Part shown: piece by piece, positions 44,439 through 64,000 of the stretch | Layout: the number at the start of each line of letters is the position of its first letter | Position numbering within the stretch: position 1 is the stretch's first letter | NCBI GenBank assembly: GCA_030867685.1 | Contig: JAQOWU010000001.1 | Span: 744,001-808,000 of the forward strand | Reading direction: 5' to 3' | Length of the DNA stretch: 64,000 nt | Source of the DNA: Wickerhamiella versatilis | Taxonomy: Eukaryota | The notes under the pieces: model-generated | Seen by the model: only the letters and a program-made list of their open reading frames with translations | Told to the model about the DNA's origin: nothing | Database searches by the model: none | Made by a program: the position numbers and the translations under genes

Positions 44439-44625
44439 AGATTGGATGAGGTAAGATTGATTGTAAGTTCCATGTGGGGAAATCTCCTAAGTGGAATACA
44501 TAATAGTTAACAATTTTTATGAGCGGATATGTGAAATACTACTATCTATTAATCAAGCATTTAAACGAACTCGTTCCCTTTGATATTCTTACATAGCACT
44601 ATAATCGAATCTGCGTTCATTTCTT

Positions 44626-46520: not shown

Positions 46521-46793
46521 GTACATAAAGATGACACCATAAAACTCTCATGAATTTTTACACATCCGAAATATTTATTATTCTGTGTACCACTTAAGCT
46601 ATATACTAGGGGAGCAGTGAGGCGTCTTTTATCTTCCTTCATTTGCTCGGAACTCTCACTAGCTATACTATCCTTATTCAACACACTCTTTTTTAACTTT
46701 GTTCAAGAGGTATCGCCTGCACTCTGTATTCCGCTGCAACAGGAGATCTCATATTAACTAAGCAGCTACTCCCGAGACGCTGTAAAGTGGGTT

Positions 46794-48470: not shown

Positions 48471-48746
48471 GCAAACTTCTACTTATTATTATGTACGTAT
48501 TTATCGACAAATGTATAGCCAGTTTTACGCAAGTTGGAGATCGACCTTCCTCCATGTTGCTTTTAAATTAGTCTGTGGCAGGAATATTATCGCTTTCAAT
48601 CGGCTAGTGATGCAGCAATGGCTCCTATGCGTCGCCGATCTCTTCCGTCATCATCCCGGGCGGCTAATGGGTTATCGGATGAGCGCGTCTATTTATGATT
48701 ATTAATCAGGTAGTTATATTGTGCTACCTGCGCCCTTTTAAAAGGT

Positions 48747-50051
48747 ATGAGCCTCTCCAACGAATATGTCAAAACGCTCGATCGGAACAACGTATTCCAT
48801 TCCTGGTCTGTTCAAAGTGCAAATGATCCTGTGGTAATCAAGGGAGGTGGTGGCTCTAAATTGTGGGATTATAATGGGAACGAATACCTTGATTTTTCAA
48901 GCCAGCTAATATACACAAATTTGGGTCATCAGCATCCCAAAGTGATTGCCGCTATAAAGGCTCAAGCTGATACGTTGGTAACTATAGCCCCTGGTCATGC
49001 CAATCTCGCTCGTGGTGAGGCTGCAGCACGTATTCTCTCGCATGTGCCAAAAGATAGTTTCTCCAAAGTTTTTTTTACGAATGCTGGTGCAGATGCTAAC
49101 GAAAATGCTATTCGGATGGCTCGTAGTTTCACAGGTCGTGATAAAATATTATCAGGCTACCGGTCGTATCATGGAAATTCTGGTACCTCAATTGTAGCTA
49201 CGGGAGATGCCCGCCGTATTCCCAATGAGTTTAGTCGTGGCCATGTCCACTTTTTCAATCCTTATCTCTATCGCACTGAATTTTGGTCTGTAGATGAGGA
49301 CCAAGAGTGCGCTAGAGGCCTGCACCATCTGAGAAGAGTGATAGAATGCGAGGGTCCAGGATCTATCGCAGCAATTATTCTTGAGAGTATTCCTGGTACT
49401 GCGGGTGTGCTGATTCCCCCCAAAGCCTACCTCAAAGGTGTTCGACAGTTAGCAGATGAGTTTGGCATCCTGCTTATTCTCGATGAGGTTATGGTCGGAT
49501 TTGGGCGTACAGGTAAATGGTTTGCATTTGAACATTTTGATGTGGTTCCAGATTTGATCACGTTTGCAAAGGGAGTGAATAGTGGATATGTTCCAGCTGG
49601 TGGTGTTATAGTCTCTAATAAAGTCACTGACCATTTCCATGATCTAATGTTTTATGGTGGGTTGACGTACTCAGGCCATCCACTTGCGATGGCAGCCATA
49701 GTGGCTACGATTGATGCTATGGAGGATGAAAAAGTAGTGGAAAACGCTGAGAGGATTGGCAAAGAGGTGATAGGCCCGACTTTGAATTCTATGGCTAAAG
49801 AATGCAAGCTTATCGGTGAAGTTAGAGGCATGGGTGTCTTTTATGCATTGGAACTTGTTAAAGATCCAGTGAGCCGCGCACCGCTGGATGATCTGTGTAT
49901 GAAGAAGTTTAAGGCTGGAATGATCAAGCGAGGCTTGCTTCCCTTCGTTGCGCAAAACCGCTTGCACATAGCACCACCGTGTAATATTACTCCTGAAGAA
50001 ACAAAAGAGGGGCTTAAAATTATTGCGGAAGCTCTGAATGATATATCCTAG
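48747..50051 (+). CDS. Class-III omega-aminotransferase (taurine/beta-alanine/diamine type), actinobacterial-like
   Basis: VFHSWS, YLDFSSQL, GHQHP, YRSYHG, DEVMVGFGRTG, TFAKGVNSGY, GGLTYSGHP. Confidence 0.85.
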   Translation: MSLSNEYVKTLDRNNVFHSWSVQSANDPVVIKGGGGSKLWDYNGNEYLDFSSQLIYTNLGHQHPKVIAAIKAQADTLVTIAPGHANLARGEAAARILSHVPKDSFSKVFFTNAGADANENAIRMARSFTGRDKILSGYRSYHGNSGTSIVATGDARRIPNEFSRGHVHFFNPYLYRTEFWSVDEDQECARGLHHLRRVIECEGPGSIAAIILESIPGTAGVLIPPKAYLKGVRQLADEFGILLILDEVMVGFGRTGKWFAFEHFDVVPDLITFAKGVNSGYVPAGGVIVSNKVTDHFHDLMFYGGLTYSGHPLAMAAIVATIDAMEDEKVVENAERIGKEVIGPTLNSMAKECKLIGEVRGMGVFYALELVKDPVSRAPLDDLCMKKFKAGMIKRGLLPFVAQNRLHIAPPCNITPEETKEGLKIIAEALNDIS

Positions 50052-51094
50052 AAATCCATTGACCAGAGTGGATATACCGCGATTCTTCATCTTCTACATC
50101 TAAATACGTTTCAAATTGAATATATCATATAATTACGGCTCTAGTATATATATACATCATGAGTCACGCGCGTATATGCCACATGTCTTTACTATTGAGA
50201 TTACTAGCTAATAGATATGTTTGTTCGAGTCTAAGTGAAGTCCGTATACTAGGTGATGAGCGTGTATCCAAAGCTATCATCTATTTGAGAAGTACTGAAG
50301 GGATAGAGAAGTCAATTCTCACCAAGTGTCTACTAAGCCTTAAATTTGATCAAAAATCTTCTCTCATTCACCAAAACATCAGAGGTTTTCTTAGTATTTG
50401 TGCTACTCTGATAAGAATGGCCACTTAAATTTAAAATCGTCAGAACTACCGAGTTTGACGTGGACATAACAGTGCTCCAAAGAGAGAGTTAGACTCAAAA
50501 GACGGCATAATTAAATGGGCATATATCTAATTGCTATCTTTTAACTCACCTTGGATGAATTAGTTTTGGATCAAAAAAATAGCCCAAAGACTTCTGATAA
50601 CAAGCTATCTCTTATGTAGAATGAAATTTCAACATGATGGTCAGAATGAATATGGCTAGAGTTATTGGCTTCATGAAAGTGCCCTATTAATTTAGGATGT
50701 GGAAATAAGGTTCATATGTATACAGCGAAAAAAGTTCTTGTCGTCTTAAAAAAAAATACATTTGGTACTGCAATAGCATCAAATATTAAATAAGGCTCAC
50801 AGAAGGAATTTTTAGAAAAACATATGTATGATGTAATAAATAATAAATGATTCAAGATTGCCGATCGTATCTTTTTCATCTCATAAATATGTGATCGAGC
50901 TAATATGGACGTAGACTGTAGATACTAGAACAAAAGCATACGAAAATCAAATGAAACTATCAGAAAATACGTACTTTAGTCCTCATTCAAAACAATAATG
51001 TATTATTGTTTCAAAACGTGCGAAAACTTTCAACCCTGACAAAACCTGCAGATTATTAATCTAAGTCTCGGGTGTCTACCGTCGCTGAATTCAG

Positions 51095-51940
51095 ATGATT
51101 CCTAAACTTGCTTCCTATGAACTCCCTAAATCAGAGGAAATTCCTCGTGGAAGAGTTGATTGGCCTTTAGAACCTGCTAAGGCTGCGCTGCTCATACATG
51201 ATATGCAAGACTATTTTCTAGACTTTTGGGGTGAAGACAGCCCTTTCACAAAGTCTTTGGTTCAAAACATACAACGTTTAAAGGAGTTCTGCAAGTTGAG
51301 AGATATCCCTGTCTATTACACCGCTCAACCAGCTGAGCAAAGCCCAGAGGATAGAGCGTTACTGAATGATATGTGGGGTCCGGGGATAGCGACTCGGCCA
51401 CACCGAAAGAATGTTACCAAGGCCTTAGAACCGCAAGAAAACGATATTGTATTGACCAAGTGGCGCTATAGTGCATTTCAACGTTCGAACCTGGAAGAAC
51501 TACTCAAGAAATCAGGTCGTACTCAGTTAATTATTTGTGGCGTTTACGCGCATATTGGCTGTATGACAACTGCACTCGATGCATTTATGCGCGATATAAA
51601 GCCTTTTCTGGTGGCTGATGCATTGGCAGATTTTTCGAGAGAGAAGCACATCACAGCTTTAGAAATCGTAGCCGGATCCTGTGGAAGAGTGATCAAACTG
51701 GATAACGTGGTTGGCGGTCTACCTCAGAGCATAGAAGAATTACGCGAGCAAGTCCTAGTGTTGCTTGATGATGAAGATGAGGCTCCAGAAAATGATGAGA
51801 ACCTCGTGGACTTTGGGCTGGATTCCGTCCAAATTATGGCCACGGCTGCCAAGTGGCAGAAAATCAAACCGGAGATAGACTTTATCAAGCTCGCCCAGAA
51901 TCCTAGTATTACTTACTGGTGGTCCCTTTTACAAGATTAG
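51095..51940 (+). CDS. entB: Isochorismatase / aryl carrier protein
   Basis: IPKL, LLIHDMQDYF, DRALLNDMWGPG, KWRYSAF, GVYAHIGC, DAFMRDI; ArCP FGLDSV. Confidence 0.95.
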   Translation: MIPKLASYELPKSEEIPRGRVDWPLEPAKAALLIHDMQDYFLDFWGEDSPFTKSLVQNIQRLKEFCKLRDIPVYYTAQPAEQSPEDRALLNDMWGPGIATRPHRKNVTKALEPQENDIVLTKWRYSAFQRSNLEELLKKSGRTQLIICGVYAHIGCMTTALDAFMRDIKPFLVADALADFSREKHITALEIVAGSCGRVIKLDNVVGGLPQSIEELREQVLVLLDDEDEAPENDENLVDFGLDSVQIMATAAKWQKIKPEIDFIKLAQNPSITYWWSLLQD

Positions 51941-52172
51941 ATTCAATGCGGCAGCAAGCGAATTCTCTTGTCTGCTATAACATAGCTTTTCTTTTTGTGG
52001 AGAATATTTCTCTTAAAGACAAGGATCACATGTGAACATAGTCCGTGTACGTCTGTCTACATACTTCAACCCACCAGATATTTTAACGACTGGCATATAG
52101 GCGGTTAGGCTTAGTAAGGTATCTCTTACAGACATTGTAGATGCTACGATTGCTATTGAAGAGCCAGGCAGA

Positions 52173-52895
52173 ATGAGTATTTTCGACCCCATAAATTCAT
52201 CAGCTTGTGATGAGCTTATTCAAAAAATCGAATGGGGTACTCTTGTATCCCATCCGCAAGTTTACTATTGCAAGGTCAACTTTAATGATTCTGCCTATGA
52301 TGACGACCACTACTCCAATTACGGTATTGAATATCCCAGCCACATTAGGCGTTCTGTATTGAAGCGACGTGCCGAGCATCTGGCAGGCCGGTTCTGCTGT
52401 CAATATCTTTTTCATGCACTTCAATTACCGGGTGCTGTTTCACACCACGAGGATAGGTCACCCTGCTGGCCTCCAGGAGTCGCAGGAAGTATTTCACATT
52501 GTAAAGGTCACTCCATCGCCCTTGTAACTAATAAGCAGGATAAGCATCCTGGCGTGGATGTCGAAATTCTGGATAAGCAAACCCTCAGTGAATGCGCAGA
52601 TATGTTTTCCTCCAATGATGAACGAAACATGGTAAGACGAAAACTCGACTCTGAGGCTCACAAAGAACTCCTTATTTTCTCTGCGAAAGAAAGTTTTTTC
52701 AAGGCAGTTTATCCACAGGTGAAGTTTTTTTTCGGTTTTGAATATGCTACCATAGTAGATGTTAATGCTGAAAAAAAAACATTTATATTAGAATTAACTA
52801 AAACGTTGATACCAGCGAGATTGGAGAAAGGAATGCACTGGGTTGGAAATTTCAATATCGAAGGCGAGCTTATTACGACATGTATAGTGTGCTAA
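52173..52895 (+). CDS. entD: 4'-phosphopantetheinyl transferase
   Basis: KRRAEHLAGR, WPPGVAGSISH, GVDVE, FSAKESFFKA; position in ent cluster. Confidence 0.9.
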   Translation: MSIFDPINSSACDELIQKIEWGTLVSHPQVYYCKVNFNDSAYDDDHYSNYGIEYPSHIRRSVLKRRAEHLAGRFCCQYLFHALQLPGAVSHHEDRSPCWPPGVAGSISHCKGHSIALVTNKQDKHPGVDVEILDKQTLSECADMFSSNDERNMVRRKLDSEAHKELLIFSAKESFFKAVYPQVKFFFGFEYATIVDVNAEKKTFILELTKTLIPARLEKGMHWVGNFNIEGELITTCIVC

Positions 52896-53074
52896 ATTTC
52901 TAATTCGGGATAGAGATTAAAAAAAGCAGCATTATAATTTTTCATTTCATTTCATTTGATTTTGTCCTATGTCTCATCGGCACACAGCATTCCTCTGTTT
53001 CATAACGACGGTAACCCTAAGCCTGAAGATTGATTATCCAATAAATCTATCGGACAAATCAATCTTTTTGGTCA

Positions 53075-56000
53075 ATGGCATTGCCCCTTGTGGCAGCGCA
53101 ACCAGGAATCTGGGTAGCTGATCAGCTATCCCCCTATCAAAATGCATATATGATAGCTCACTACTTGGATATTCTTGGTGACTTGAATGTCGATGCTCTC
53201 TGCGCGGCCATAATGAGTGGTATGATGGAGGCAGACACCTTACAGATGCACTTCACAGAAGTAGATGGAGAGCCTAAACAAATACCTATGGGCCCGCTGT
53301 TACTTCCCTCGCCTATATATAAGGACTTGCGCGCTGATGTTAATCCTCTTCATTCGGCACATGCGTGTATGTATGATGATTTGAAAGGCAATAGGCGGCT
53401 GATGACTGGGAATAATCTCAGTTGTAACGTAATATTACGTCTAGATGAGAGGCATTATGTCTGGTACCAGCGCTACCATCATCTCCAATTAGATGCGTTC
53501 AGCTTTACTGCTTTGACTCGTCGTATCGTGGAGCTTTATAGTGCGTCTGTGAGAAATTTGGAACCCAGAATGACCCCATTTGTGCCTTTTGCAAACGTAG
53601 TACAAGAGTATGCCTCGTATTGGAATTCTGAGAAGAGATTTAAAGATGCAGCATATTGGACAGGCGTGTGCAAATCTTTGCCAGAAGCTGTATCTCTTTC
53701 GCCCAGATCTCTAAGTGGAGAGACTCCGACAACAAATATTTTGCGACATGCTACTACATTTGATCCCAGTACAATGCGTACCCTGTTCTCAGCTGGCGAG
53801 GCAGCTGGCATAAGAAGTGTTGACCTTGTGCTAGCTATAATTGCTCTTTGGCTGTTGAAGCTTTCTGACAGTAAATCTATGGGTGTTGGATTTATATTCA
53901 TGCGTAGAGCTGGTTCAGAAGCATTGAATGCTACTGGGCCAGTAATTAATGTTCCACCTATGTGCGTAAGTCTGTGTGAGACTATACTCTCAATGGCGAA
54001 AAATATAAATAAGACTATCAAGGAAATGCGTCGTCACCAACGCTACGATGCTGAACAGATTGTGCGGGATACCAAACGCAGCTGGGATAGCGAACCCCTG
54101 TATGGTCCTGTGATTAACTTTAAGGCTTTCGATTATAAACTCGACTTTTCGGGGGTTAAATGCACTACGCATCATTTAGCTTCAGGACCAGTACGTGATA
54201 TGGAAATCACCATATTCCTTGACGACGAGGCGAATTGCTCGGTAGAGATTCTTGCCAACGCTCAACGGTATAATACAGATATTCTGGAGAAACATCTAAA
54301 CCGACTTCACCTCCTGGTGGATCAATTTGCCACCAATATTGACCTTTCGTGCGAAAAGGCTGATGTATTATTGCCTGAAGAGAGAAAATTAATCTCTGAG
54401 ACGAATTCAACCGAGGTGCCAATTTCGAAGGATACGCTTGCCAGCCTCATTCAGAAGCAATGGCTCGCCACACCAGAGAGTCCTGCATTGCAAGACATGC
54501 GACACTGTTTGAGTTATAGGCAGATGATGCTACAGGCTAATTCTTTGGCGCAGTGTTTGGTAACGCGGGGTATTAGTCCAGGAAGCATTGTTGCCGTGGC
54601 ACTGCCCCGCTCCATATTTTTAGCAGTTGCTTTACAAGCAATAATTCTAGTTCGTGCGGCTTGGCTTCCGTTGGATACGGGATACCCAGAATCACGGTTA
54701 AAGTTCATGCTTGAAGATGCACAACCGTCGCTTCTGATCACAAATACCGATGAGCTCAGCAGAATATCATTTGCTGCACCAGTCGAAACGTTTATATACG
54801 ACTCATTGCTCCCAGAAGTGGAATCATTATCACTTCCATCTGTCAAACCGGATGATAGGGCATATATAATTTATACGTCAGGTTCTACTGGTCAACCCAA
54901 AGGGGTAGTTCTCAACCATCAAGCGATAGTCAACCGATTGCTGTGGATGCAAGATCAATATGGTCTCAAAACGCATGACAAGGTGTTACAAAAGACTCCA
55001 TGTAGTTTTGATGTCTCAGTGTGGGAATTCTTCTGGCCAATAATCGTTGGTGCTCGTCTGATAATGGCACCACCAGAAGCGCACCGCGATCCAGAGCAGC
55101 TTCAGAAGCTTATATTGGACCATCAAATAACCACGATTCATTTTGTTCCATCAATGCTGGCGTCTTTTGTTAATGTTTTGGGCCAGAATCAGGACTGTCA
55201 AAGTCTTTCACGTGTATTCTGCAGCGGTGAAGCCCTTTCAACTGACTTGGCAAAACAATGGCAAAATAAAATGCATGTTCCATTATACAATTTGTATGGG
55301 CCGACCGAAGCAGCGATCGATGTTGCTTTCTATCCTGCTTTTGGTGCCAGTCTGGAAGCAGTAAGTACCCATACCGTGCCTATTGGAGTACCTGTTTGGA
55401 ACACATCACTGCATATATTAGATTCACATTTATGTCCAGTTCCTCTCGGGATTATTGGTGAACTCTACATTGAGGGGGTGCAACTCGCAAACGGGTACCT
55501 GAATAGATCCAGCCTGACTGCTAGCTCCTTTATTAAAACTCACGTCGACAAAATACTCTATCGTACTCATGACTTATGCCGGCGATTGGACAGTGGGTCC
55601 ATTGAATTTATTGGCCGAAGTGATCACCAGGTTAAGATTCGTGGACAGCGTATCGAGCTCGGTGAGATAGATCAAGTAATGCAGCATCTTGATGGTGTTT
55701 TGCAGGCTGTCACTGTACCACAACTTTTAGGAAAGTATAAAGAGGGTGATTTTCATGATGGACGGCAGCTAGTGAGCTATGTAGTTCCAGCAACCGACAT
55801 CAAGCTTGACGCAGAAAAACTACTTAGGGAAGCAGCACGGTTCTTACCATCGTATATGGTGCCATCAGTACTCGTCTTTATGACTGAACTTCCTCTAGGA
55901 AACACAGGAAAGCTCAATCATCGGGCCTTACCTCTTCCAGATATCAATTGGCAACAGCAGCATAGGGAAAATGGACGTCTTCCTAATGCTGGCTTAGAGC

Positions 56001-57001
56001 AAGTGGTTGCTAATGCATTTAAAACTTTACTTGGTTGTGAAACTGTTTTTGCAGATGATGATTTTTTTTCCCTTGGTGGCCATTCGCTTCTCGCAGTACG
56101 CTTAGCTGCATTATTGCGGCAGGAATTGAAATTGCCTGTTGCTATTGGGCAAATAATGCAATCATCTAAAGTGTCAAGCTTAGCTGCACAATTGAGCGAT
56201 ATTGAGAACCAAGAAGCTTGGGAAAACGCAGGATATGAGACTCTTTTACCATTTCGAGTTAGTGACGATGATAGTAAGGGCCCAACATTATTCTGCATTC
56301 ATCCTGCCTCGGGATTTGCGTGGCAGTTTAGTATTCTCCAACGCTATCTGGAAAAGAATTGGTCTATTGTAGGTGTTCAATCGGCCCAGTCCGATGGACC
56401 TCTTGCTACTACTGCTTCATTGACTGACTTGATCGAGTCTCGATATGAAGCTATCCGCACAAAGCAGAAGCACGGCCCGTACCATTTGATTGGTTACTCA
56501 TTGGGGGGAACAATAGCTCATGGTGTGGCTGCTAGACTGAGACAGTCAGGCGAAGTAGTGGCGTTTCTAGGATTGCTCGACACTTGGCCGCCAGAGTCTC
56601 AGAACTGGGACGAAAAACTTGGTAAAAATAATGTGGATCAGGCTGTAATTGATGAAATGATGCGTGAAAGGCAGGAGTTTTGTCAAGCTCAACAGGGTTT
56701 GTTCGATAATTCAGAAAAACTTTTCAACGTTATTGAGAATAACTATGCCAGTGCAGTGCGATTACTTGCCACTGCTCGTAGTAGCTATTTTGATGGCAAA
56801 GCGACTTTATTCGTTGCTGAGCGCACATTACCTGCCAATGTCGACATTAAGGATGTCTGGTCTCCTTGGAATAGGCAGCTGGAAGATCTTACGGTCGACT
56901 GTTCACATGTAGATATAATTTCACCGGCAACATTTGAAACCCTCGGCCCGCAAATCGCTGAAGTTTTACGAGCTAAAGAAGAGGCATCAAAGCTGGCTTA
57001 A
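53075..57001 (+). CDS. entF: Enterobactin synthetase component F, NRPS C-A(Ser)-T-TE
   Basis: LPLVAAQPGIW, RYHHLQLDA, YTSGSTGQPKG, FDVSVWEFF, LYGPTEA, GGHSLL, HPASGFAWQF, GYSLG, HVDIISP. Confidence 0.95.
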   Translation: MALPLVAAQPGIWVADQLSPYQNAYMIAHYLDILGDLNVDALCAAIMSGMMEADTLQMHFTEVDGEPKQIPMGPLLLPSPIYKDLRADVNPLHSAHACMYDDLKGNRRLMTGNNLSCNVILRLDERHYVWYQRYHHLQLDAFSFTALTRRIVELYSASVRNLEPRMTPFVPFANVVQEYASYWNSEKRFKDAAYWTGVCKSLPEAVSLSPRSLSGETPTTNILRHATTFDPSTMRTLFSAGEAAGIRSVDLVLAIIALWLLKLSDSKSMGVGFIFMRRAGSEALNATGPVINVPPMCVSLCETILSMAKNINKTIKEMRRHQRYDAEQIVRDTKRSWDSEPLYGPVINFKAFDYKLDFSGVKCTTHHLASGPVRDMEITIFLDDEANCSVEILANAQRYNTDILEKHLNRLHLLVDQFATNIDLSCEKADVLLPEERKLISETNSTEVPISKDTLASLIQKQWLATPESPALQDMRHCLSYRQMMLQANSLAQCLVTRGISPGSIVAVALPRSIFLAVALQAIILVRAAWLPLDTGYPESRLKFMLEDAQPSLLITNTDELSRISFAAPVETFIYDSLLPEVESLSLPSVKPDDRAYIIYTSGSTGQPKGVVLNHQAIVNRLLWMQDQYGLKTHDKVLQKTPCSFDVSVWEFFWPIIVGARLIMAPPEAHRDPEQLQKLILDHQITTIHFVPSMLASFVNVLGQNQDCQSLSRVFCSGEALSTDLAKQWQNKMHVPLYNLYGPTEAAIDVAFYPAFGASLEAVSTHTVPIGVPVWNTSLHILDSHLCPVPLGIIGELYIEGVQLANGYLNRSSLTASSFIKTHVDKILYRTHDLCRRLDSGSIEFIGRSDHQVKIRGQRIELGEIDQVMQHLDGVLQAVTVPQLLGKYKEGDFHDGRQLVSYVVPATDIKLDAEKLLREAARFLPSYMVPSVLVFMTELPLGNTGKLNHRALPLPDINWQQQHRENGRLPNAGLEQVVANAFKTLLGCETVFADDDFFSLGGHSLLAVRLAALLRQELKLPVAIGQIMQSSKVSSLAAQLSDIENQEAWENAGYETLLPFRVSDDDSKGPTLFCIHPASGFAWQFSILQRYLEKNWSIVGVQSAQSDGPLATTASLTDLIESRYEAIRTKQKHGPYHLIGYSLGGTIAHGVAARLRQSGEVVAFLGLLDTWPPESQNWDEKLGKNNVDQAVIDEMMRERQEFCQAQQGLFDNSEKLFNVIENNYASAVRLLATARSSYFDGKATLFVAERTLPANVDIKDVWSPWNRQLEDLTVDCSHVDIISPATFETLGPQIAEVLRAKEEASKLA

Positions 57002-57185
57002 TTCCATCTCCAAACTGCGTAAATAATTTTTTTGATATTAGAAATGGCTGTAGAATCTAAATTAGAATATCCGTTTTTGACGTGATTTATGCCGGTCGGT
57101 GAAAACAATGTTTCAGGGCTGCAGGGAAGGAAGCTGCTAATAAAAGTGTATCTCATCAATCTCTGACTAATATTTTACCGGCCCG

Positions 57186-58376
57186 ATGAGCGCATCCTCT
57201 TCAATACCGTCTTCCTCTTTATCTTATTCACCTGATGATAAGTTTTATCTTATATCTCCTACACGCAAGATAGTTACAGAGGGCTGTTTCAAACGGATTT
57301 GCACTCCAGCGCAGGATGCTAGCGACTTGGACGGTGAGTTTCAATGTTCACTCAAGAATGCTCTAGAGGAAGCCAAAGCTGCAGGTATTGAAGAGCCGTT
57401 GGTTGTTGGTGCCGTACCATTTGATGTAACGCAGCCATCTGCACTGTTCATCCCGAATTCCTGGCGGTCGCTTAGCGTCGAGGAAGTCCATGCTTATGGG
57501 GCGAAGCAAAAAGACTATGCCATCGAACTTCTTTCTATCGATTCGATACCTGACCACAACAAATTTTTATCGATTGTCAGCGAAGCTATTGACAGAATCA
57601 CACATGAGGGACTTAAAAAAGTTGTCTTGTCACGATTACTGGAAATACAGGCAAAGAATAACGTCGATAGTGAGGCTCTTCTGGGCCGCTTAACCATGCT
57701 AAATAGCACTGCCTACAATTTTCGCGTGCCACTACCTGATGGTGGGTACTTGGTTGGATCGAGTCCAGAATTGCTGGCCAGCCAGCAGGGAGAAAAGTTT
57801 ATGTCTATACCGCTTGCTGGAACGGCAAAACGTGATTCTCGAGATTGGGTGAAGGATACAGCGGTTGCTCAAGGGTTATTGTCGTCACAGAAAGATCGAT
57901 ATGAGCATCGATTGGTCATTGATTCCATGCGTGAAACCCTAGAAAGTAGTCAAAAATTTACCGAAATGCAATTCCCCGACACCCCTAAGTGTATATCGAC
58001 ACCAAAAGTCTGGCATCTTGCTACCGAGATTGCTGGTTCACTGGTTAATAGCTCCGACAACGCCCTCTCTCTCGCATGTTTATTACATCCTACACCGGCT
58101 CTCAATGGGTTTCCTCATGATGTTGCACGTAAAATGATTTCTGAACTCGAACCGTTTAACCGAGAGTATTTTGGTGGAATTGTTGGATGTTGCGACGCGA
58201 AAGGAGATGGAGAGTGGGCCGTAGCTATCCGTTGTGGAAAAGTTAAAGATGATAAGATACGTCTTTTTGCTGGTGCTGGTATCGTAGGAGACTCGATTCC
58301 TGAATCTGAGTGGCGGGAAACAGGCATCAAACTTTCGACAATGTTACATGCATTTGGGCTTCCACCCAAAGAATAA
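57186..58376 (+). CDS. entC: Isochorismate synthase
   Basis: VGAVPFD, KVVLSR, GSSPELL, PLAGT, KDRYEH, WHLAT, LHPTPAL, IRC, FAGAGIV.DS.PESEW.ET. Confidence 0.95.
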   Translation: MSASSSIPSSSLSYSPDDKFYLISPTRKIVTEGCFKRICTPAQDASDLDGEFQCSLKNALEEAKAAGIEEPLVVGAVPFDVTQPSALFIPNSWRSLSVEEVHAYGAKQKDYAIELLSIDSIPDHNKFLSIVSEAIDRITHEGLKKVVLSRLLEIQAKNNVDSEALLGRLTMLNSTAYNFRVPLPDGGYLVGSSPELLASQQGEKFMSIPLAGTAKRDSRDWVKDTAVAQGLLSSQKDRYEHRLVIDSMRETLESSQKFTEMQFPDTPKCISTPKVWHLATEIAGSLVNSSDNALSLACLLHPTPALNGFPHDVARKMISELEPFNREYFGGIVGCCDAKGDGEWAVAIRCGKVKDDKIRLFAGAGIVGDSIPESEWRETGIKLSTMLHAFGLPPKE

Positions 58377-58568
58377 AAACATATTCACTACTTAGATACA
58401 GAAGTAAAGAATTATATAGAATTGATTTGAATTTCGTAGAGAGTCGGATGGTGCCAGATGCTTACGAACTCGGTGGAGGCCGATAGGTCAAGATTGATTT
58501 GATACTACCCTAGTCCATCACGTGATTAGGCTACACAGTACCTGGGCGTGGCTACCGTTCGTTACCTA

Positions 58569-60185
58569 ATGGTTATTCCTTATTGTCGATGGCCTAAGAA
58601 CGAAGAGGCTAAGTATGAAGCTAAAGGATATTGGGCTGGTCTCCCCTTATGCGACATCGTCACTAGGCGGTCTGAGGATGACAACACCGCAGTGATAGAT
58701 GGTGATCGGAGATTAAGCTACCGCCAGCTAGATCATATGAGCAGTTGTCTGGCTAGTTCGTTGCAGAAGCAAGGTTTGAAACAAGGAGATACCGCTATAG
58801 TTCAGCTGTCTAATAACTACGAGCTATACGTTGTCTTTTTTGCCTTATTAAAACTTGGAGTGGTATTAGTTAACGCTCTCTTCAGCCATCGCCAGCTCGA
58901 ACTTGAAGCTTATGCTGACCAAATTCAGCCTAGGTTGTTAATTGCAGATAGGGGTCATGCCATTTTTCATGACAATTCTTTTGTAGACCATTTGCGGACG
59001 GTATCGCCGGGGCTTCACGTCACACTTTTTCGTCAAGAGACCCGCGATAGTAGTCAATCGCTTGACGCCTTCATGGAAGGTTCAAAGGCAGAATTCTCAT
59101 CCTCACCAACTCCTGCTGATGAGGTGGCATTTTTTAACTTGTCAGGCGGCAGCACTGGTACTCCAAAGCTCATTCCCCGCACACATAATGACTATTATTA
59201 CAGCGTTCGTCAAAGCAACGTGGTCTGCAGAATAACTGAGGCAACCCGATTCTTGTGTGCAATTCCTGCTGCGCACAACTTCCCAATGAGCTCGCCAGGG
59301 GCTCTAGGTGTATTCTATGCTGGTGGCCAAGTAATAATGGCCCCAGACCCCAGCGCTACAAGCTGCTTTCCGCTTATAGAGCACCACAAGGTTAATTTGG
59401 CCTCACTGGTGCCAACTGCGGCTAGTTTGTGGCTTCAACAAGTAGACCAGACGGGAAATGGCAGTTTACGTTCTCTCGAGCTACTACAGGTCGGTGGTGC
59501 ACGACTAAGTCCAGTTTTGGCCGCAAAACTCTCGAAGACCATTGGTTGTAAGCTACAGCAGGTTCTTGGGATGGCGGAGGGACTGGTAAATTACACTCGC
59601 CTAGATGATGATGAGAATCATATTTTTACTACCCAAGGCTATCCGATGTCGCCAGACGATGAAGTCTGGGTGGCAGATGTAGAAACTGGAGAGCCTCTAC
59701 CACGTGGAGAGGTTGGTCTGCTCATGACCCGAGGACCATATACGTTCAGAGGGTATTATAAAAGCCCAGAGCACAATGCAAAATCTTTTGACGCTCAAGG
59801 CTTTTATTGCTCTGGTGACTTAATCGCCATCTCGGAAGATGGATACATCACTGTACACGGGCGCCAAAAGGATCAGATTAACCGGGGAGGAGAAAAGGTA
59901 GCGGCTGAAGAAATTGAGAACTTATTGTTGCGCCATCCTGACATCATCGAAGCTGGCATTGTGGCAATCGTGGATGACTTGCTGGGTGAGAAGAGTTGTG
60001 CTTTCATTATGGTGCGTAAGCCAGTAAAGCCATCTCAGCTTCGAAGGTTTCTCCGGGACCAGGGAATTGCGGAGTATAAGTTACCTGACAAGTTCCAGGT
60101 GGTGCCTGAGCTCCCTCTTACTGCAGTTGGCAAGGTTGACAAAAAAGAGCTTCGTTTACAACTCCCCGATAGCTTAAGAGATTGA
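58569..60185 (+). CDS. entE: 2,3-dihydroxybenzoate-AMP ligase
   Basis: [72 protein letters not shown] 58569. Confidence 0.95.
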
Positions 60186-60301
60186 ACTAACTTAATCTTA
60201 GTGAGTAAAACGATCACAGATTGATTAGATTAAGACTCCACCTAGACAACCAGCTCTTAGTCACGTTTGGCGGAACCGACGAGTAAAACAATATTTCACC
60301 A

Positions 60302-61063
60302 ATGACGACAAAGTTTGACTTTGCGGGTAAAAAGGTTTGGGTCACAGGCGCTGGTCAAGGTATTGGATACGTAGTTGCAACCGACTTTCACAAAGCAGGT
60401 GCGGTGGTTACAGGCTTTGATCTAAAATTTCACCCCGACACTGAATATCTGTTCGATACTCGAGAGTTGGATGTTGCAGATCCGGTTCAGGTCAAGTCAG
60501 TCACTGAGCACTTGTTAACGACGAGCCCTGGTCTAGATATCCTTGTAAATGCGGCGGGTATATTGAGGATAGGTCAGACAGACGAAGTATCGTTCCAGGA
60601 CTGGCAGCTTTGCATCAACGTGAACGCTGGAGGCGCCTTTAATATGTTCCAGCAAACGCTTCCCGTATTTCGCCACCAGCGTCATGGTGCAATCGTCGTG
60701 GTGAGCTCAAATTCCGCACATTCACCACGACTCGGAATGTCTATTTACGGAGCTTCTAAAGCAGCATTGCGCAGCCTGTGCCAGACAGTGGGCCTTGAAA
60801 TGGCACCTTACGGTGTCCGATGCAATATGGTCTCTCCTGGATCAACCAATACTGAAATGCAACGTAGCCTATGGAAAACACCTGACGGCGAGTCACAAAT
60901 GATTGCCGGTTTTCCGGAACAATTCAAGCTGGGAATTCCGCTAAGAAAGATCGCTCAGCCAGAAGAAATTGCGTCAACAGTGATGTTTTTAGCCTCGGAT
61001 GCAGCGAGTCATGTGACTCTACAGGACATTGTCGCCGATGGCGGGGCAACACTGGGCGCCTGA
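60302..61063 (+). CDS. entA: 2,3-dihydro-2,3-dihydroxybenzoate dehydrogenase
   Basis: KVWVTGAGQGIG, NAAGILR, YGASKAA, SPGST, FKLGIPL.KIA, DGGATLGA. Confidence 0.95.
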   Translation: MTTKFDFAGKKVWVTGAGQGIGYVVATDFHKAGAVVTGFDLKFHPDTEYLFDTRELDVADPVQVKSVTEHLLTTSPGLDILVNAAGILRIGQTDEVSFQDWQLCINVNAGGAFNMFQQTLPVFRHQRHGAIVVVSSNSAHSPRLGMSIYGASKAALRSLCQTVGLEMAPYGVRCNMVSPGSTNTEMQRSLWKTPDGESQMIAGFPEQFKLGIPLRKIAQPEEIASTVMFLASDAASHVTLQDIVADGGATLGA

Positions 61064-61085
61064 TGCCAAATGACAAATATCGGTT

Positions 61086-61496
61086 ATGATCTGGAAACGT
61101 ACTAGTGATGTGGAAAAGCTCAATGCCATGTCCCCTGGAACCATGATCGGACATCTGGGCATCAAATTTATTAGTTCGGATGATGATACACTGGTGGCGA
61201 CTATGCCTGTAGATTCACGAACGTGTCAACCCTTCGGGCTGCTACACGGCGGGGCTTCAGCGGTATTAGTGGAATCCCTTGGATCCTTTGCCAGTTGGCT
61301 TGCTACCCCTGAGGGGAAAAATGTTGCCGGGACTGAGGTCAATGCTAGCCATGTGCGAGCGGTTTTTGGTGGAGAGGTTGTTGGGGTGTGTAAATCTCTT
61401 AGTCTAGGCGGTCGCCAACACGTTTGGTCTGTCATGATTTATGATGATAAAAATCATTTATGCTGCTGTGGCCGATTAACAACAGCTATAATATGA
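61086..61496 (+). CDS. entH: Proofreading hotdog thioesterase
   Basis: MIWKR, MPVDSRTCQPFGLLHGGAS, E.NASH. Confidence 0.9.
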   Translation: MIWKRTSDVEKLNAMSPGTMIGHLGIKFISSDDDTLVATMPVDSRTCQPFGLLHGGASAVLVESLGSFASWLATPEGKNVAGTEVNASHVRAVFGGEVVGVCKSLSLGGRQHVWSVMIYDDKNHLCCCGRLTTAII

Positions 61497-61681
61497 TGGT
61501 TGACGTGTGATATCACCAAACAAAATATAGGCAGTGCTTCAATAACGTATTTGGTTTAAACCAGTTATGTGGGCTATTTTTGCATTGTCCAACAAGCAGT
61601 CTCAGGTAACGTGATGATGCCTTGTGGCACAACTATTATATACCGTGTGGGATGTAATAGGAATCTACATAAATATCTTTG

Positions 61682-62185
61682 CTACGCTGCGCACTTTTTA
61701 TGTGTGCCCTCTAGTAGATCTTGCAACGAATCAACAACGCTATGCTGCCCAAAGTGGTGCCTCCAAAGTCTGCTTCCCATATCTGCAGACCGGTCCAAGG
61801 ACGAGCCCATAGTGAGCCACTTAAGCAAAGTTGGCTGAAGGCCCGCGTCAAACAACATGAAGCCTACGCAAAGGCAACAGGCATCAGTTTGGATGCCACA
61901 GACATACACCTTACCGACATTTCTCGACTTCAAATGCTGAATCAGGGCATATGGTGGCATATATCCATATTTTATAAACATAGCATCTGTTTTAATTAAC
62001 GGATCATCATTAAAGCCTTGCGGCTTCCAGCCGAGTTGCTTTTCAAAAGGGGTTACCTCCTCATTATACCATTCGACGGTTGAGACACTATAGAATTTAT
62101 CACGAACAACTTCAATTTCCATTATCAGCTGTTGCGACGGATGAAAGCTCTGCTGAACGTCAACGACCAGCAGAGCTTCCTTCAT
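61682..62185 (-). CDS. Cysteine hydrolase (isochorismatase superfamily), bacterial type
   Basis: LLVVDVQ (Asp), FIKYGY (Lys), CGIQTDACC (Cys), LFDAG; ATG 62185. Confidence 0.75.
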   Translation of the reverse strand: MKEALLVVDVQQSFHPSQQLIMEIEVVRDKFYSVSTVEWYNEEVTPFEKQLGWKPQGFNDDPLIKTDAMFIKYGYMPPYALIQHLKSRNVGKVYVCGIQTDACCLCVGFMLFDAGLQPTLLKWLTMGSSLDRSADMGSRLWRHHFGQHSVVDSLQDLLEGTHKKCAA

Positions 62186-62399
62186 TGAGATGAGTAAGCG
62201 AGAGTGACCATTTTGCTTCTGTCTGAGAATCAAAAGCAATGGAAAAATTAAGCAATAGCATCATGAATTCGACTTGCTGTAGCCTCTCATGCTCATTATC
62301 CCATTTATGCTTGTCATCTATAGATTGAGTAATTTCACAAAACACTGTTGAGAAAAATCAAGAATTTTATTATATAATTTTTCATCAGACGAGGCTTTC

Positions 62400-63503
62400 A
62401 TGGGAACTAGACTGAACAACGATGATGCATTTGCAGCGACTAATCGCGGTGGAATCATTGAGAATAAGCATAACATTCATGCAGCTATAGTAGATGGCAA
62501 CGGTGACCTACTCTATGGTATAGGTGATCCATCTCGTGTCACACTTGCGCGGTCCGCAGTCAAGCCAATCCAGGCTTTAGCAATTTTGAAAACAAAAGCT
62601 GATCAGTTGAGTGGATTCGACGATGCAGATCTGGCCTTGATGTGTGCTTCTCATAGCGGTGAGGCCCGTCATATCGAGAGAGCTCGCGATATGCTGTCTA
62701 AGATCTCTGTCCATGAAAATGAGATGCAGTGTGGTGGCCATCCTTCACTCTCGACGCATGTGAACACTACATGGGCCAAGGAAGGGTTTGTTCCAACTCC
62801 TTTGTGTAGTAACTGCTCTGGAAAGCATGCTGGTATGCTCGCAGGTTCTAAAGCACTTGGTGCTGATATCGGGGACTATCATCTGCCGAACCACCCAATG
62901 CAAAAACTGGTGATGCAGACAGTGGCAGATGCATGTGATTTGGAACCCAACGAGGTTTTATGGGGGGTAGACGGTTGCAACTTACCTACACCTGCATTTC
63001 CGCTAGATCGTCTTGCTCGGATTTATGCAAAATTGGCTGCGGCTGCCGATAAAACTGATAATGTGGATGACAGGAATGGAGATTCGGCCAACCTTGGCCG
63101 TATCTACAATGCCATGGCCTCTTATCCAGAATTGATTGCTGGAGATGACCGATATTGCACTATACTAATGAAAGCATTCAACGGTGACCTCATTGGTAAA
63201 CTTGGCGCAGATGGCTGTTACGGTATTGGCATTCGTGACTCGGATGATACAAGGCGATTAGGCTCTAATAATGGACTTGGAATAGCAGTCAAGATTGATG
63301 ACGGCAGCATTGACGTGCTATATGCTGTTGTGTCAGAATTACTGGAACAACTTAATATCGGTACTGCTGAAAACAGAAATTGTCTTGAGTCTTTTCGCAA
63401 TATGAAACGACTGAATTCAAAGGGTATTGATGTGGGCGGAATATCATTCCACTTTAAGCCTCGATCATATCGGAAAACCGATACCGATTCAGGTGCAGAG
63501 TAG
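62400..63503 (+). CDS. L-asparaginase II (Rhizobium AnsA-type, class 3 asparaginase)
   Basis: RGGIIENKH, RSAVKPIQA, CASHSGE, NCSGKHAG, DGCNLP, GKLGADG, AVKIDDG. Confidence 0.9.
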   Translation: MGTRLNNDDAFAATNRGGIIENKHNIHAAIVDGNGDLLYGIGDPSRVTLARSAVKPIQALAILKTKADQLSGFDDADLALMCASHSGEARHIERARDMLSKISVHENEMQCGGHPSLSTHVNTTWAKEGFVPTPLCSNCSGKHAGMLAGSKALGADIGDYHLPNHPMQKLVMQTVADACDLEPNEVLWGVDGCNLPTPAFPLDRLARIYAKLAAAADKTDNVDDRNGDSANLGRIYNAMASYPELIAGDDRYCTILMKAFNGDLIGKLGADGCYGIGIRDSDDTRRLGSNNGLGIAVKIDDGSIDVLYAVVSELLEQLNIGTAENRNCLESFRNMKRLNSKGIDVGGISFHFKPRSYRKTDTDSGAE

Positions 63504-63576
63504 AAAATAAAATTGAATAAAATAAATACTTCTCTCACTAAAAAACGCTAGTTTAAGAGGCTTTCGGGAGCTCTAA

Positions 63577-64000
63577 CTAACCACATAGAGTACTTGCGGC
63601 CGTGGCGTAATCGCACATGTCGGCAGCATCTACGGCTATATGCTCCCAGCGGATAATAGACGACTTATCAAGTGCAAACCCACCAGAATTCTGCCAACGC
63701 CATGAACCGTCCAACGTGAAAGGTGAAGGGATTCCCTCAGCGCTAAGTTCACTTAGTTTAGAAAATCCACCACTCATGTTCAATATTCCACCCCAACCGA
63801 GTACACCGACTCCCCAGCCAGCATAAATTGTCCGTTCTGGATCAGCAACAAGACGAAGGTTCTTGATTCTATCACCGAATGCTGCAGGACCTCCAATAAT
63901 ATCGAACCATTCTTTCACAACAGGCTCATCGCTATGTTGTACGATTATAACGTGCAATTCTGGATATTTTTGAACTTGCTGGCCGAGTACGAGCACCTCT
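63577..64000 (-). CDS. AhpC/TSA-like (thioredoxin-fold) protein, 5' end outside window
   Basis: LVADPERTIYAGWGV and WQNSGGFALD..IIRWEH resemble the fungal AhpC-TSA_2 C-terminus; the frame runs to the window edge. Confidence 0.55.
   Translation of the reverse strand, partial: EVLVLGQQVQKYPELHVIIVQHSDEPVVKEWFDIIGGPAAFGDRIKNLRLVADPERTIYAGWGVGVLGWGGILNMSGGFSKLSELSAEGIPSPFTLDGSWRWQNSGGFALDKSSIIRWEHIAVDAADMCDYATAASTLCG

Follow-up and report, generated by a model that had tools for sequence, protein, structure and literature searches.

The closest described relative of the locus analyzed here is the enterobactin gene cluster of the yeast Candida (Wickerhamiella) versatilis. In the text of Kominek et al. 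2018 (10.1101/399394), this cluster is assigned an Enterobacterales origin, with entB-entD and entE-entA-entH at opposite ends, a class II asparaginase gene on the 3' side, a mean spacer of 158 bp, and an entH gene that is unique to this species. The same text reports siderophore halo assays that were positive for five species in the clade of Wickerhamiella and Starmerella (W/S), and yeasts of this clade are called enterobactin producers in the available text of Sun et al. 2024. A similar transition from a bacterial operon to a eukaryotic gene cluster is described, in the available text of PMC13376923, for the thiamine salvage genes of the W/S clade, which differ from the ent genes in the pathway and in the donors. 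On the bacterial side, the ent-fep cluster of Escherichia coli consists of separate units, entD, fes-ybdZ-entF and entCEBAH, with fepA-G, entS and fepB lying between them on both strands; the annotated record has reversed entD and fepA, then fes ybdZ entF and, further on, entC E B A H, in agreement with the order quoted in an earlier note on this DNA.

The window, that is, the whole 64,000-nucleotide stretch of the W. versatilis genome that was analyzed, contains an ent block of seven uninterrupted ATG-to-stop ORFs in the order entB-D-F-C-E-A-H, preceded by a long spacer:

50052..51094, no strand: 1043-bp AT-rich spacer 5' of entB, presumed entB promoter region (GC 0.34)
51095..51940, + strand: entB, bifunctional isochorismatase / aryl carrier protein, 281 aa (2fq1, Pfam Isochorismatase)
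52173..52895, + strand: entD, 4'-phosphopantetheinyl transferase, 240 aa, the most diverged gene (Pfam 4PPT_N, ACPS)
53075..57001, + strand: entF, NRPS C-A-PCP-TE, 1308 aa (Pfam domain order, 5ja1)
57186..58376, + strand: entC, isochorismate synthase, 396 aa (NCBIfam EntC, 5jxz)
58569..60185, + strand: entE, 2,3-dihydroxybenzoate-AMP ligase, 538 aa (NCBIfam PRK10946)
60302..61063, + strand: entA, 2,3-dihydro-2,3-dihydroxybenzoate dehydrogenase, 253 aa (NCBIfam PRK08220)
61086..61496, + strand: entH, hotdog-fold proofreading thioesterase, 136 aa (EntH tree, position after entA)

The ORF listing of the window reproduces exactly the seven co-oriented genes, coordinates and spacers given in the earlier note: by the ORF coordinates, the spacers from entB to entH are 232, 179, 184, 192, 116 and 22 bp long (mean 154 bp), and the five of 116-232 bp are AT-rich. 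The genes were also correctly called intronless, given that the alignment of each ORF with its bacterial orthologue is full-length and that the RNA reads show zero joints in 46001-64000. All layout features agree with those of the C. versatilis cluster as described in the text of 10.1101/399394, and nothing substantive differs. Because gene content and layout match that cluster, the system is already known, and the region is very probably the horizontally acquired enterobactin cluster of the W/S-clade yeasts in its published C. versatilis form, so that the earlier assessment of the locus as striking but probably not new holds. Publication of the cluster dates from 2018-2019, with follow-up work in 2024 and 2026; there is, therefore, no new kind of thing here.

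The window shares with E. coli the seven biosynthetic enzymes (34-64% protein identity), the position of entF upstream of entC on the same strand and the adjacency of entA and entH, but differs in that all seven genes are co-directional, entB comes first, entE abuts entA, and codon use and spacers are eukaryotic. The front position of entB, which had been contrasted with E. coli, is a departure from the bacterial order in general: among the bacterial loci with both genes, all 77 have entB after entE, and entA comes directly after entE in 0 of 74. No trace of ybdZ, which would encode the MbtH-like partner of EntF, or of fes, fepA-G or entS was found in the window, so that no remnant of the E. 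coli esterase and transport genes accompanies the cluster. The description of the locus as a complete operon thus stands in part: the biosynthetic set is complete, but this is not a working operon, considering that transcripts start separately (see below) and ybdZ, fes, fepA-G and entS are absent.

Searches against NCBIfam, Pfam and solved E. coli structures agree on the identity of each Ent protein. EntE and EntA pass the cutoffs of their NCBIfam models (PRK10946, 893.3 bits against 783, and PRK08220, 387.3 against 312). EntB matched no EntB model in NCBIfam; its alignment with E. coli EntB (2fq1) covers residues 2-279 at 6e-115, and it matches Pfam Isochorismatase at 2.2e-40 and keeps the GLDS serine motif of the carrier domain. 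The top NCBIfam match of EntC is EntC, at 456.9 bits and under the cutoff of 624, with an alignment to E. coli EntC (5jxz) over 14-392 at 1.9e-116. EntF, with 1573.8 bits under an equivalog cutoff of 2400, has the Condensation, AMP-binding, PP-binding and Thioesterase domains of Pfam in order, matches E. coli EntF (5ja1) with 1381 bits over 3-1297 and keeps the motifs HHLQLDA, GGHSL and GYSLGG (catalytic His, carrier Ser and thioesterase Ser). EntD scores 76.6 bits with the NCBIfam EntD model (cutoff 169), and its best solved-structure match is 7bcz, with a chain named EntD, at 5.5e-21; the blocks KRRAEHLAGR, WP..GS.SH, GVDVE and FSAKES..KA align with seven bacterial EntD sequences and fit the motif definitions of an Sfp/EntD-type phosphopantetheinyl transferase. 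Four of the seven proteins (EntF, EntC, EntD and EntH) miss the NCBIfam equivalog cutoffs, as expected for diverged xenologues, yet this leaves them without a formal pass.

The assignment of entH required a distinction from paralogues. The protein reaches 165.7 bits with the NCBIfam model (cutoff 237), and its match to E. coli YdiI (166.6) is better than that to E. coli EntH (4k4c; 146.3, 5.5e-42); it has V90 at the position where 66 of 66 cluster-linked bacterial EntH proteins have H. A 93-row tree places it among 65 cluster-linked bacterial copies of EntH, in one clade with an SH-aLRT of 93, as the sister of the Biostraticola cluster copy (support 94) and apart from 27 copies located elsewhere in genomes (YdiI/MenI type). 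By tree topology and by its location directly after entA, the gene classifies as EntH and not as the paralogue YdiI/MenI.

The trees and the AU test group the Ent proteins with Enterobacterales orthologues. The best 80 genome loci all belong to Enterobacterales (60-66% identity), and the best 80 matches kept from a metagenome search are 59-65% identical, that is, of bacterial grade. In the concatenated tree (EntC+E+B+A, 78 rows), Enterobacterales and the window form a group with an SH-aLRT of 100, and the window falls inside a 68-row clade (100) that lacks Serratia, Hafnia and Acerihabitans, on a long branch (0.82) and with odd composition. The AU test rejects keeping the window outside this group, which was named after inspection of the tree, with p 0.0203. 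Biostraticola tofi (Bruguierivoracaceae; locus L074) has the top identity to the window in every gene compared (entF 53, entC 53, entE 66, entB 64, entA 73 and entH 61%), is sister to the window in all six single-gene trees and in both concatenated trees, and shares 54 exclusive residues with it, compared with 10 for the next taxon. When Biostraticola is removed (LG+G4), the window drops to the base of all 27 remaining Enterobacterales. Judged from the sequences, the window appears to be nested in Enterobacterales above the Serratia lineage, a placement that leans on Biostraticola alone.

The claim that the cluster is flanked by eukaryotic genes does not hold because the three genes closest to it resemble bacterial genes as much as the ent genes do, being 65%, 59% and 62% identical to genes on bacterial plasmids:

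48747..50051, + strand: class-III aminotransferase, left neighbour, bacterial-like, outside the pathway (NCBIfam PRK06062, 693 bits, cutoff 472)
61682..62185, - strand: isochorismatase-family cysteine hydrolase, 167 aa, bacterial-like, convergent with entH (Pfam Isochorismatase, 1.2e-06)
62400..63503, + strand: class II asparaginase, 3' neighbour (Pfam Asparaginase_II, 6.8e-116)

Over 98% of its length, the aminotransferase matches a Klebsiella plasmid gene at 65% identity, and its closest Atlas clusters are 100% Bacteria. The cysteine hydrolase, likewise 100% Bacteria in the Atlas and covered by RNA reads, shares 59% identity with a plasmid sequence of Novosphingobium and 53% with an annotated Pseudomonas cysteine hydrolase gene; its derivation from EntB as a relic was considered and rejected (E 0.32). 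The asparaginase is 62% identical to Rhizobium plasmid genes. The first neighbour without a bacterial plasmid match is the LicD-family gene at 46794-48470. The ent cluster is, accordingly, part of a run of bacterial-like genes 14.8 kb long, which is consistent with the pile-up of foreign genes in the chromosome-end domains of W. versatilis described in the available text of PMC13376923. Neither the aminotransferase on the left nor the cysteine hydrolase between entH and the asparaginase appears in the main text of 10.1101/399394.

Mapping of poly(A) RNA (two runs, 3,383 and 14,514 reads) yields reads on all seven ent genes; the source strain of this RNA differs from the window by 1-5%, most reads being 95-99% alike. 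In both runs, the depth is close to zero in the bin 50201-50800, upstream of entB, with the flanks covered on each side. Among the loose read ends listed, at least three genes (entF, entE and entH) have 5' ends at which a non-genomic, oligo-like tag directly precedes the first base; the tag has no match in the window at up to three mismatches:

53061, + strand: transcript 5' end, 14 nt 5' of the entF ATG (18 tagged reads)
58564, + strand: transcript 5' end, 5 nt 5' of the entE ATG (41 tagged reads)
61079, + strand: transcript 5' end, 7 nt 5' of the entH ATG, within the 22-bp spacer between entA and entH (22 tagged reads)

The single promoter and single transcript of a bacterial operon are not what is found here, although read-through or bicistronic forms may exist. 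Because polyadenylated RNA covers every gene and entF, entE and entH have separate 5' ends, the ent genes are a cluster of individually transcribed genes and not a polycistronic operon, which is shown for these three genes and inferred for the rest. The Cell version of the Kominek et al. study reportedly mentions new transcription start sites in its abstract. According to the text of 10.1101/399394, C. versatilis transcripts are mostly monocistronic, with a sub-population of overlapping ones.

By their enzyme families, EntC, EntB and EntA would convert chorismate to 2,3-dihydroxybenzoate, EntD would prime the carrier domains on EntB and EntF, EntE would charge EntB with dihydroxybenzoate, EntF would join dihydroxybenzoate to serine and cyclotrimerise the product to enterobactin, and EntH would remove wrongly loaded groups from EntB. 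That enterobactin is the product is suggested by the published assays within the W/S yeast clade. The cluster could instead be a decaying relic that is transcribed but no longer yields enterobactin in this yeast: EntD is highly diverged (30-37% identity to bacterial EntD), the condensation motif HHLQLDA of EntF has A where E. coli and Biostraticola read G (...DG), the MbtH-like gene is absent, the 5' leaders, at 5-14 nt, are very short for yeast mRNA, and several ent-bearing yeast species gave no halo in the assays described in the text of 10.1101/399394. This appears very unlikely, given that all seven reading frames are open, key catalytic motifs are retained, and poly(A) RNA is present on all genes, with the ent expression of C. 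versatilis being the highest among the three species sequenced according to the same text. Furthermore, in the six proteins other than EntD, 88-100% of the bacterial-invariant residues are kept (entB 99/104, entF 365/415, entC 86/94, entE 184/198, entA 83/83, entH 37/42) compared with 47-74% overall identity.

A rival explanation is that of an Enterobacterales contig misjoined to yeast DNA, as could be suspected from the Enterobacterales affinity of every ent protein and the bacterial-like genes adjoining on both sides. The probability of such contamination or chimeric assembly is negligible. The GC3 of the ent genes (0.382-0.465) is within that of the 28 other ORFs of the window (0.347-0.494), compared with 0.518-0.86 in bacterial orthologues, and their RSCU correlates with that of the other window ORFs at r 0.890 but with that of bacterial ent genes at -0.29 to 0.06 (31-80 bacterial orthologues per gene, only one for entD), so that codon use is host-like and unlike that of any bacterial orthologue measured. 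The nearest bacterium is just ∼63% identical over 1430 columns, and the AT-rich spacers span 116-232 bp versus 2-162 nt in bacteria. A single 111,276-bp contig from an isolate run spans 46001-64000 in one piece, and metagenome contigs covering 48693-51404 and 59900-62502 cross both borders with 0 differences, leaving no chimeric join at either. Exact Ent proteins were found in public assemblies on contigs of up to 400,565 bp, and the ent stretch is present in sequencing runs from 11 studies. Contamination is, thus, rejected because the codon use is that of the host, unbroken contigs bridge the borders, and poly(A) RNA, with tagged 5' ends, covers all seven genes. Trees, codon use, contigs and RNA together support the earlier proposal of horizontally acquired enterobacterial ent genes, as in Wickerhamiella/Starmerella yeasts.

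Whether these genes entered this yeast separately, apart from the single operon transfer of the W/S clade, has to be considered because entH is reported for this species alone in the text of 10.1101/399394 and repeated uptake at the site is conceivable given the other bacterial-like genes nearby. The AU tests on 12 yeasts in that text favour one source and one transfer, and the full amelioration and long branch suggest an old event. In addition, all 65 bacterial loci with both genes have entH after entA, and therefore, the retention of entH is best regarded as the ancestral state; the 22-bp entA-entH gap is within the bacterial range of 2-45. An independent acquisition is, accordingly, extremely unlikely.

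Under the reading of a single ancient transfer, a yeast ancestor would have acquired an Enterobacterales ent array, the genes of which would then have been wholly recoded to the codon usage of the host. The transport, esterase and MbtH-like genes would all have been lost, entB shifted from the entE-entA interval to the front of the cluster, and five of the six junctions widened from 2-162 nt (bacterial, by alignment ends) to 116-232 bp. The B. tofi array is a single co-directional run, ybdZ-entF-entS-entC-E-B-A-H, that differs from the window in being only ∼63% identical, in having entB in the bacterial position and in keeping entS and ybdZ. Because this array is already co-directional, a donor related to Biostraticola could have passed on the yeast order F-C-E-A-H directly, and then only entS and ybdZ had to be lost and entB relocated. 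The adjacency of entD and entF in the yeast is left unexplained because the EntD homologue of B. tofi is on a different contig.

The motif AGATTGAT is repeated in four internal spacers, and 0 of 1000 shuffles match its count:

53027..53035, + strand: AGATTGATT, motif copy 5' of entF (exact match)
53057..53065, - strand: AGATTGATT, motif copy, inverted partner of 53027..53035, overlapping the entF 5' end (exact match)
57154..57162, - strand: AGATTGATG, one-mismatch motif copy that ends 24 nt before the entC ATG (sequence match)
58491..58499, + strand: AGATTGATT, motif copy 5' of entE (exact match)
60218..60226, + strand: AGATTGATT, motif copy 5' of entA (exact match)

A fifth exact AGATTGAT copy is located 6.6 kb away, 16 nt 5' of a catechol-O-methyltransferase-family gene. 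These observations suggest, as a tentative and on balance doubtful pair of linked propositions, that a newly evolved shared cis-element replaced the bacterial promoter and that the donor was a relative of Biostraticola, of the family Bruguierivoracaceae by NCBI ranks. After the transfer, co-regulation from a single promoter would have given way to a shared AGATTGAT(T) element 5' of entF, entC, entE and entA.

Biostraticola as the nearest relative, the AGATTGAT motif and the mapped 5' ends are not mentioned in the main text of 10.1101/399394, and neither the Biostraticola kinship nor the motif nor the expressed cysteine hydrolase gene was found in the literature searched; these three are possible additions to the published picture. 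With a whole bacterial biosynthetic operon inside a eukaryote, the ent cluster is an oddity worthy of a textbook, for which contamination is now excluded on independent grounds and the picture of the neighbourhood is corrected. The leads on how an operon is domesticated come from the spacer motif, from the short leaders and the start site in the 22-bp entA-entH gap, and from a bacterial relative that is nearer and more simply laid out. One host transcription factor would bind AGATTGAT, so that what was an operon would have become a small regulon of eukaryotic type, to which the catechol-O-methyltransferase-family gene may also belong through the fifth copy of the motif.

The enterobactin cluster of the earlier note matches the ORF listing exactly: seven ATG-to-stop ORFs, all on the + strand, occupy the coordinates it had given, and the spacers of 232, 179, 184, 192, 116 and 22 bp are reproduced from these coordinates. 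The seven Ent names are upheld by NCBIfam, Pfam and the solved E. coli structures.

Genes of the enterobactin cluster and their best support (window coordinates)
51095-51940, +, entB: PDB 2fq1, 6e-115, full length including the aryl-carrier GLDS motif
52173-52895, +, entD: PDB chain named EntD, 7bcz, 5.5e-21
53075-57001, +, entF: 5ja1, 1381 bits; Pfam Condensation, AMP-binding, PP-binding and Thioesterase in order
57186-58376, +, entC: 5jxz, 1.9e-116
58569-60185, +, entE: above the curated NCBIfam equivalog cutoff
60302-61063, +, entA: above the curated NCBIfam equivalog cutoff
61086-61496, +, entH: 136-aa hotdog thioesterase

E. coli YdiI/MenI gives the entH ORF a better score (166.6 bits) than E. 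coli EntH does (146.3 bits), and position 90 of the ORF is V, compared with H in 66 of 66 cluster-linked bacterial EntH proteins. Both paralogues were gathered from whole genomes and classed by the presence or absence of an entA homologue just upstream; in the resulting tree of 93 rows (65 cluster-linked copies, the window protein and 27 copies from elsewhere in the genomes), the 65 cluster-linked EntH and the window protein form one clade (SH-aLRT 93) with the 27 other copies outside, and the window protein is sister to the cluster copy of the bacterium Biostraticola tofi (SH-aLRT 94). Given this placement in the cluster-linked clade, the window ORF is a true EntH, and the lower score against E. 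coli EntH reflects the quicker change of EntH in Enterobacteriaceae. Counted on the alignment to the E. coli proteins, Q48, H54, E63 and H89, which we take to be the catalytic residues of EntH, are present.

Contamination is ruled out by three independent lines of evidence: the ent genes are host-like in their codons, joined to their flanks, and transcribed. The GC3 of the ent genes (0.382-0.465) is within the span seen in 28 other ORFs of the window (0.347-0.494), compared with means of 0.68-0.71 and a minimum of 0.518 for the bacterial orthologues of six genes (31-80 per gene) and 0.627 for the single bacterial orthologue of entD; the RSCU of the ent genes correlates with that of the other window ORFs (r 0.890) but not with that of the ent genes of four bacteria (-0.29 to 0.06). 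Both borders are continuous: a single 111,276-bp contig of an isolate run spans 46001-64000, and contigs from a metagenome run, one not flagged as a possible source, bridge the left (48693-51404) and right (59900-62502) borders with 0 differences. The 10-kb stretch 50000-59999 is found in sequencing runs from 11 studies, and the exact Ent proteins together with both flanking proteins are recorded in public assemblies, on contigs of up to about 400 kb. From two raw RNA runs under the same species label, 3,383 and 14,514 reads map to 46001-64000, covering 7 of 7 genes, with RNA nearly absent from the bin 50201-50800, upstream of entB. No RNA read across 46-64 kb contains a joint, and hence there are no introns in this stretch. 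Most RNA reads are 95-99% identical to the window, and so the strain sampled for RNA is somewhat different. Compared with the window, this strain and the isolate contig show clustered substitutions and small indels, at 51971, 61494-61704 and 62189-62747 (for example, the stretch after 51971, in the entB-entD spacer, is replaced, and 2 nt are deleted at 61701); among the differences listed, the spacers and the right flank vary more between strains than the ent coding regions.

The horizontal enterobacterial origin claimed from the sequence is borne out by a genome scan, trees and an AU test, in all of which the Ent proteins group with Enterobacterales. The EntE scan of species-representative genomes yielded 413 relatives, the best 80 of which are all Enterobacterales with 60-66% identity; in metagenome contigs, searched for related yeast loci, the best 80 of 297 relatives are all of bacterial grade (59-65%). 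The search for outgroups in a class-level sample gave an EntE match at 1e-80 or better in 1 of 251 genomes, the centre genome itself, and the control genomes of the family search yielded no loci; the outgroups are five named loci from plasmid records, four of them with all four genes. In the concatenated EntC+E+B+A tree (78 rows; 9 of 86 loci, with genes missing, were omitted), Enterobacterales and the window are united with SH-aLRT 100; a 68-row clade (100) contains the window and leaves Serratia, Hafnia and Acerihabitans outside; and Biostraticola tofi is sister to the window (SH-aLRT 100). This pair recurs in all five single-gene trees (entA 69, entB 60, entC 96, entE 96, entF 100) and is kept under a site-heterogeneous model with 33 rows (100). 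The window has 54 exclusive residues in common with Biostraticola, compared with 10 for the next taxon, while Biostraticola has only about 1.9 times as many private states as the next taxon (281 vs 145). Shared indels were also considered as evidence for the pair and discarded, there being only two single-column cases, which are not convincing. A tree that keeps the window outside the 28 Enterobacterales sampled, a group named after the tree had been seen, is rejected by the AU test (p 0.0203, delta lnL 48.7). The branches are long (window 0.82, Biostraticola 0.32), and when Biostraticola is omitted under LG+G4, the window shifts to the base of all Enterobacterales; the nested position thus hangs on this single genome. 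Kominek et al. arrive at an agreeing placement: the accessible text of their preprint on the Candida (Wickerhamiella) versatilis cluster puts it after Serratia/Rouxiella and before the split of Pantoea/Erwinia from the closer E. coli relatives (10.1101/399394). The literature search found no paper joining 'Biostraticola' with 'enterobactin', and the name is absent from the 10 papers listed on Wickerhamiella/Starmerella yeasts.

The annotated E. coli record has the layout quoted in the earlier note (entD and fepA on one strand, then fes-ybdZ-entF, a fep/entS block and entCEBAH), and the difference noted there, with entB first in the yeast, holds for bacterial loci generally. Among the best 80 of the 413 relatives, entE comes directly after entC in 78 of 78 loci with both genes, entB after entE in 77 of 77, entA after entB in 74 of 74, and entH after entA in 65 of 65, with an entA-entH gap of 2-45 nt by alignment ends; entA comes directly after entE in 0 of 74. 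Given this uniform order, the leading position of entB and the junction of entE with entA are derived in the yeast, and the 22-bp entA-entH gap is the sole junction still at the bacterial scale. Wherever entF is fully covered in the same best 80 (31 loci), it sits upstream of entC on the same strand, with a gap below 2.5 kb in 10 of the 31. Nine of the ten were mapped (Biostraticola, four Erwinia, Kalamiella, one Pantoea, two of three Serratia); in these, entS alone lies between entF and entC, and the co-directional arrays (fes)-ybdZ-entF-entS-entCEBAH are much nearer to the yeast F-C-E-A-H order than the E. coli layout is. The EntD homologue of Biostraticola is on a separate contig, and therefore the yeast entD-entF adjacency is not explained by that array. 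A search of the window for remnants of fes, ybdZ, fepA-G, entS and cstA found none at E up to 1, the sole match being a generic MFS resemblance (E 0.002) to the MFS gene at 1744-3411; fes/ybdZ/fep/entS remnants are likewise reported as undetectable in the accessible preprint text (10.1101/399394). A second aryl-AMP ligase on the E. coli S10 chromosome (reference record, locus L091, 3825784-3827358; its 327.7 bits fall short of the cutoff of the DHB-AMP ligase model) is probably of the yersiniabactin YbtE type, as found on plasmids.

Tagged 5' ends in a poly(A) library, among those listed, fall at 53061 (18 reads), 58564 (41) and 61079 (22), that is, 14, 5 and 7 nt upstream of the start codons of entF, entE and entH, respectively; they cover these three genes, and 43 further loose ends exist. 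Directly before each 5' end the reads carry a non-genomic tag with a consensus ending in GGTATCAACGCAGAGTACATGGG, which has no match in the window with 3 mismatches or fewer and which we take to be the 3' portion of a commercial template-switching oligo that marks cDNA 5' ends. The entH 5' end lies within the 22-bp entA-entH spacer, so that the entH promoter must be within entA. The abstract of the final version of the Kominek et al. study (Cell, 2019) reportedly mentions new transcription start sites within coding sequences. Read-through transcripts may exist beside these separate starts; the accessible part of the preprint describes the C. versatilis ent transcripts as mostly monocistronic, with some overlap at entB-entD and entE-entA-entH (10.1101/399394).

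The ent spacers are not enriched, relative to other intergenic DNA, in GATA (WGATAA, 1.0/kb vs 2.1), Aft-type (0 vs 0.4/kb) or CCAAT (1.0 vs 1.9) consensus sites, which we take to be the known iron-regulator sites. Five copies of the word AGATTGATT are present in the 64-kb window, with 1.37 expected, and four of them lie within the 925 bp of internal ent spacers.

Copies of AGATTGATT in the ent spacers
53027, +, before entF, exact
53057, -, before entF, exact
58491, +, before entE, exact
60218, +, before entA, exact
57154, -, before entC, variant with one mismatch

Without a preset word, the core AGATTGAT emerges as the commonest 8-mer of the six ent spacers (5 copies in 4 spacers); among dinucleotide-preserving shuffles, its count is reached in 0 of 1000 and its spread over four spacers in 1 of 1000. 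The idea that the spacers are duplicated promoter modules was rejected: the six aligned motif sites have no similarity past the core, and the copies therefore look like discrete sites, not copied pieces of a promoter. No copy lies in the entB-entD spacer, the entA-entH spacer or the 1043 bp ahead of entB, and of 218 papers containing the string, the 10 listed are, judged by title, unrelated. The sole exact copy outside the ent spacers (44454-44462, +) lies upstream of a catechol-O-methyltransferase-family gene (Pfam Methyltransf_3; 43767-44438, -), 16 nt from its start. Because enterobactin is a catecholate, co-regulation of this gene with the ent genes through the candidate motif is conceivable.

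The claim that the cluster is flanked by eukaryotic genes has to be amended for the immediate neighbours, which are bacterial-like; the LicD-family gene at 46794-48470 has no match among bacterial plasmids.

Immediate neighbours of the ent cluster
48747-50051, +, class-III aminotransferase, left neighbour: bacterial NCBIfam subfamily, 693 vs a cutoff of 472; 65% to a Klebsiella plasmid gene
61682-62185, -, isochorismatase/cysteine-hydrolase family, 167 aa, between entH and the asparaginase: 59% to a Novosphingobium plasmid sequence; RNA-covered

The nearest protein-atlas clusters of these two proteins are 100% bacterial, which is a lead only. The cysteine hydrolase, possibly another foreign gene, finds no mention in the accessible preprint text (10.1101/399394); its derivation from a duplicated EntB was rejected (E 0.32). 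The asparaginase, the 3' neighbour, is 62% identical to Rhizobium genes and is called bacterial in the same text (10.1101/399394). With bacterial-like genes on both sides, the ent cluster lies within a 14.8-kb bacterial-like run with differing best-hit taxa, which fits the accumulation of foreign genes in the chromosome-end domains of W. versatilis reported in the available portion of PMC13376923. A Wickerhamiella isolate with 28% divergence is also mentioned there.

Elsewhere in the window, a UriH nucleoside hydrolase (40955-41890, -) scores 461.2 against a bacterial equivalog cutoff of 450, and an aminotransferase-kinase fusion of the PRK06148 type (3687-6143, +) and an Acyl_transf_3 gene (16048-17178, +) look bacterial; foreign genes may be common throughout the window. 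Also further to the left are alcohol acetyltransferase, DUF7082 and Fringe-like families, presumably typical of fungi or eukaryotes. Two MFS transporter genes (1744-3411, +, and 9355-10842, +) lie 40-50 kb from the ent cluster; siderophore importer genes are often near ent genes according to the accessible preprint text (10.1101/399394).

The overall identity of six of the yeast proteins to bacterial orthologues is just 47-74%, and the bacterial-invariant columns are retained at 99 of 104 positions in entB, 365 of 415 in entF, 86 of 94 in entC, 184 of 198 in entE, 83 of 83 in entA and 37 of 42 in entH. EntD retains the blocks common to seven bacterial EntD sequences. EntF has an intact carrier motif, GGHSL, and an intact thioesterase motif, GYSLGG, and its condensation motif is HHLQLDA, compared with an ending in DG in E. 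coli and Biostraticola. This pattern of retention fits purifying selection on working enzymes. As the earlier note had suspected, the feature is not new: it is the yeast enterobactin cluster already in print, in the form described for C. versatilis, to which the spacer motif, the short leaders, the Biostraticola relationship and the neighbouring genes add incrementally only.
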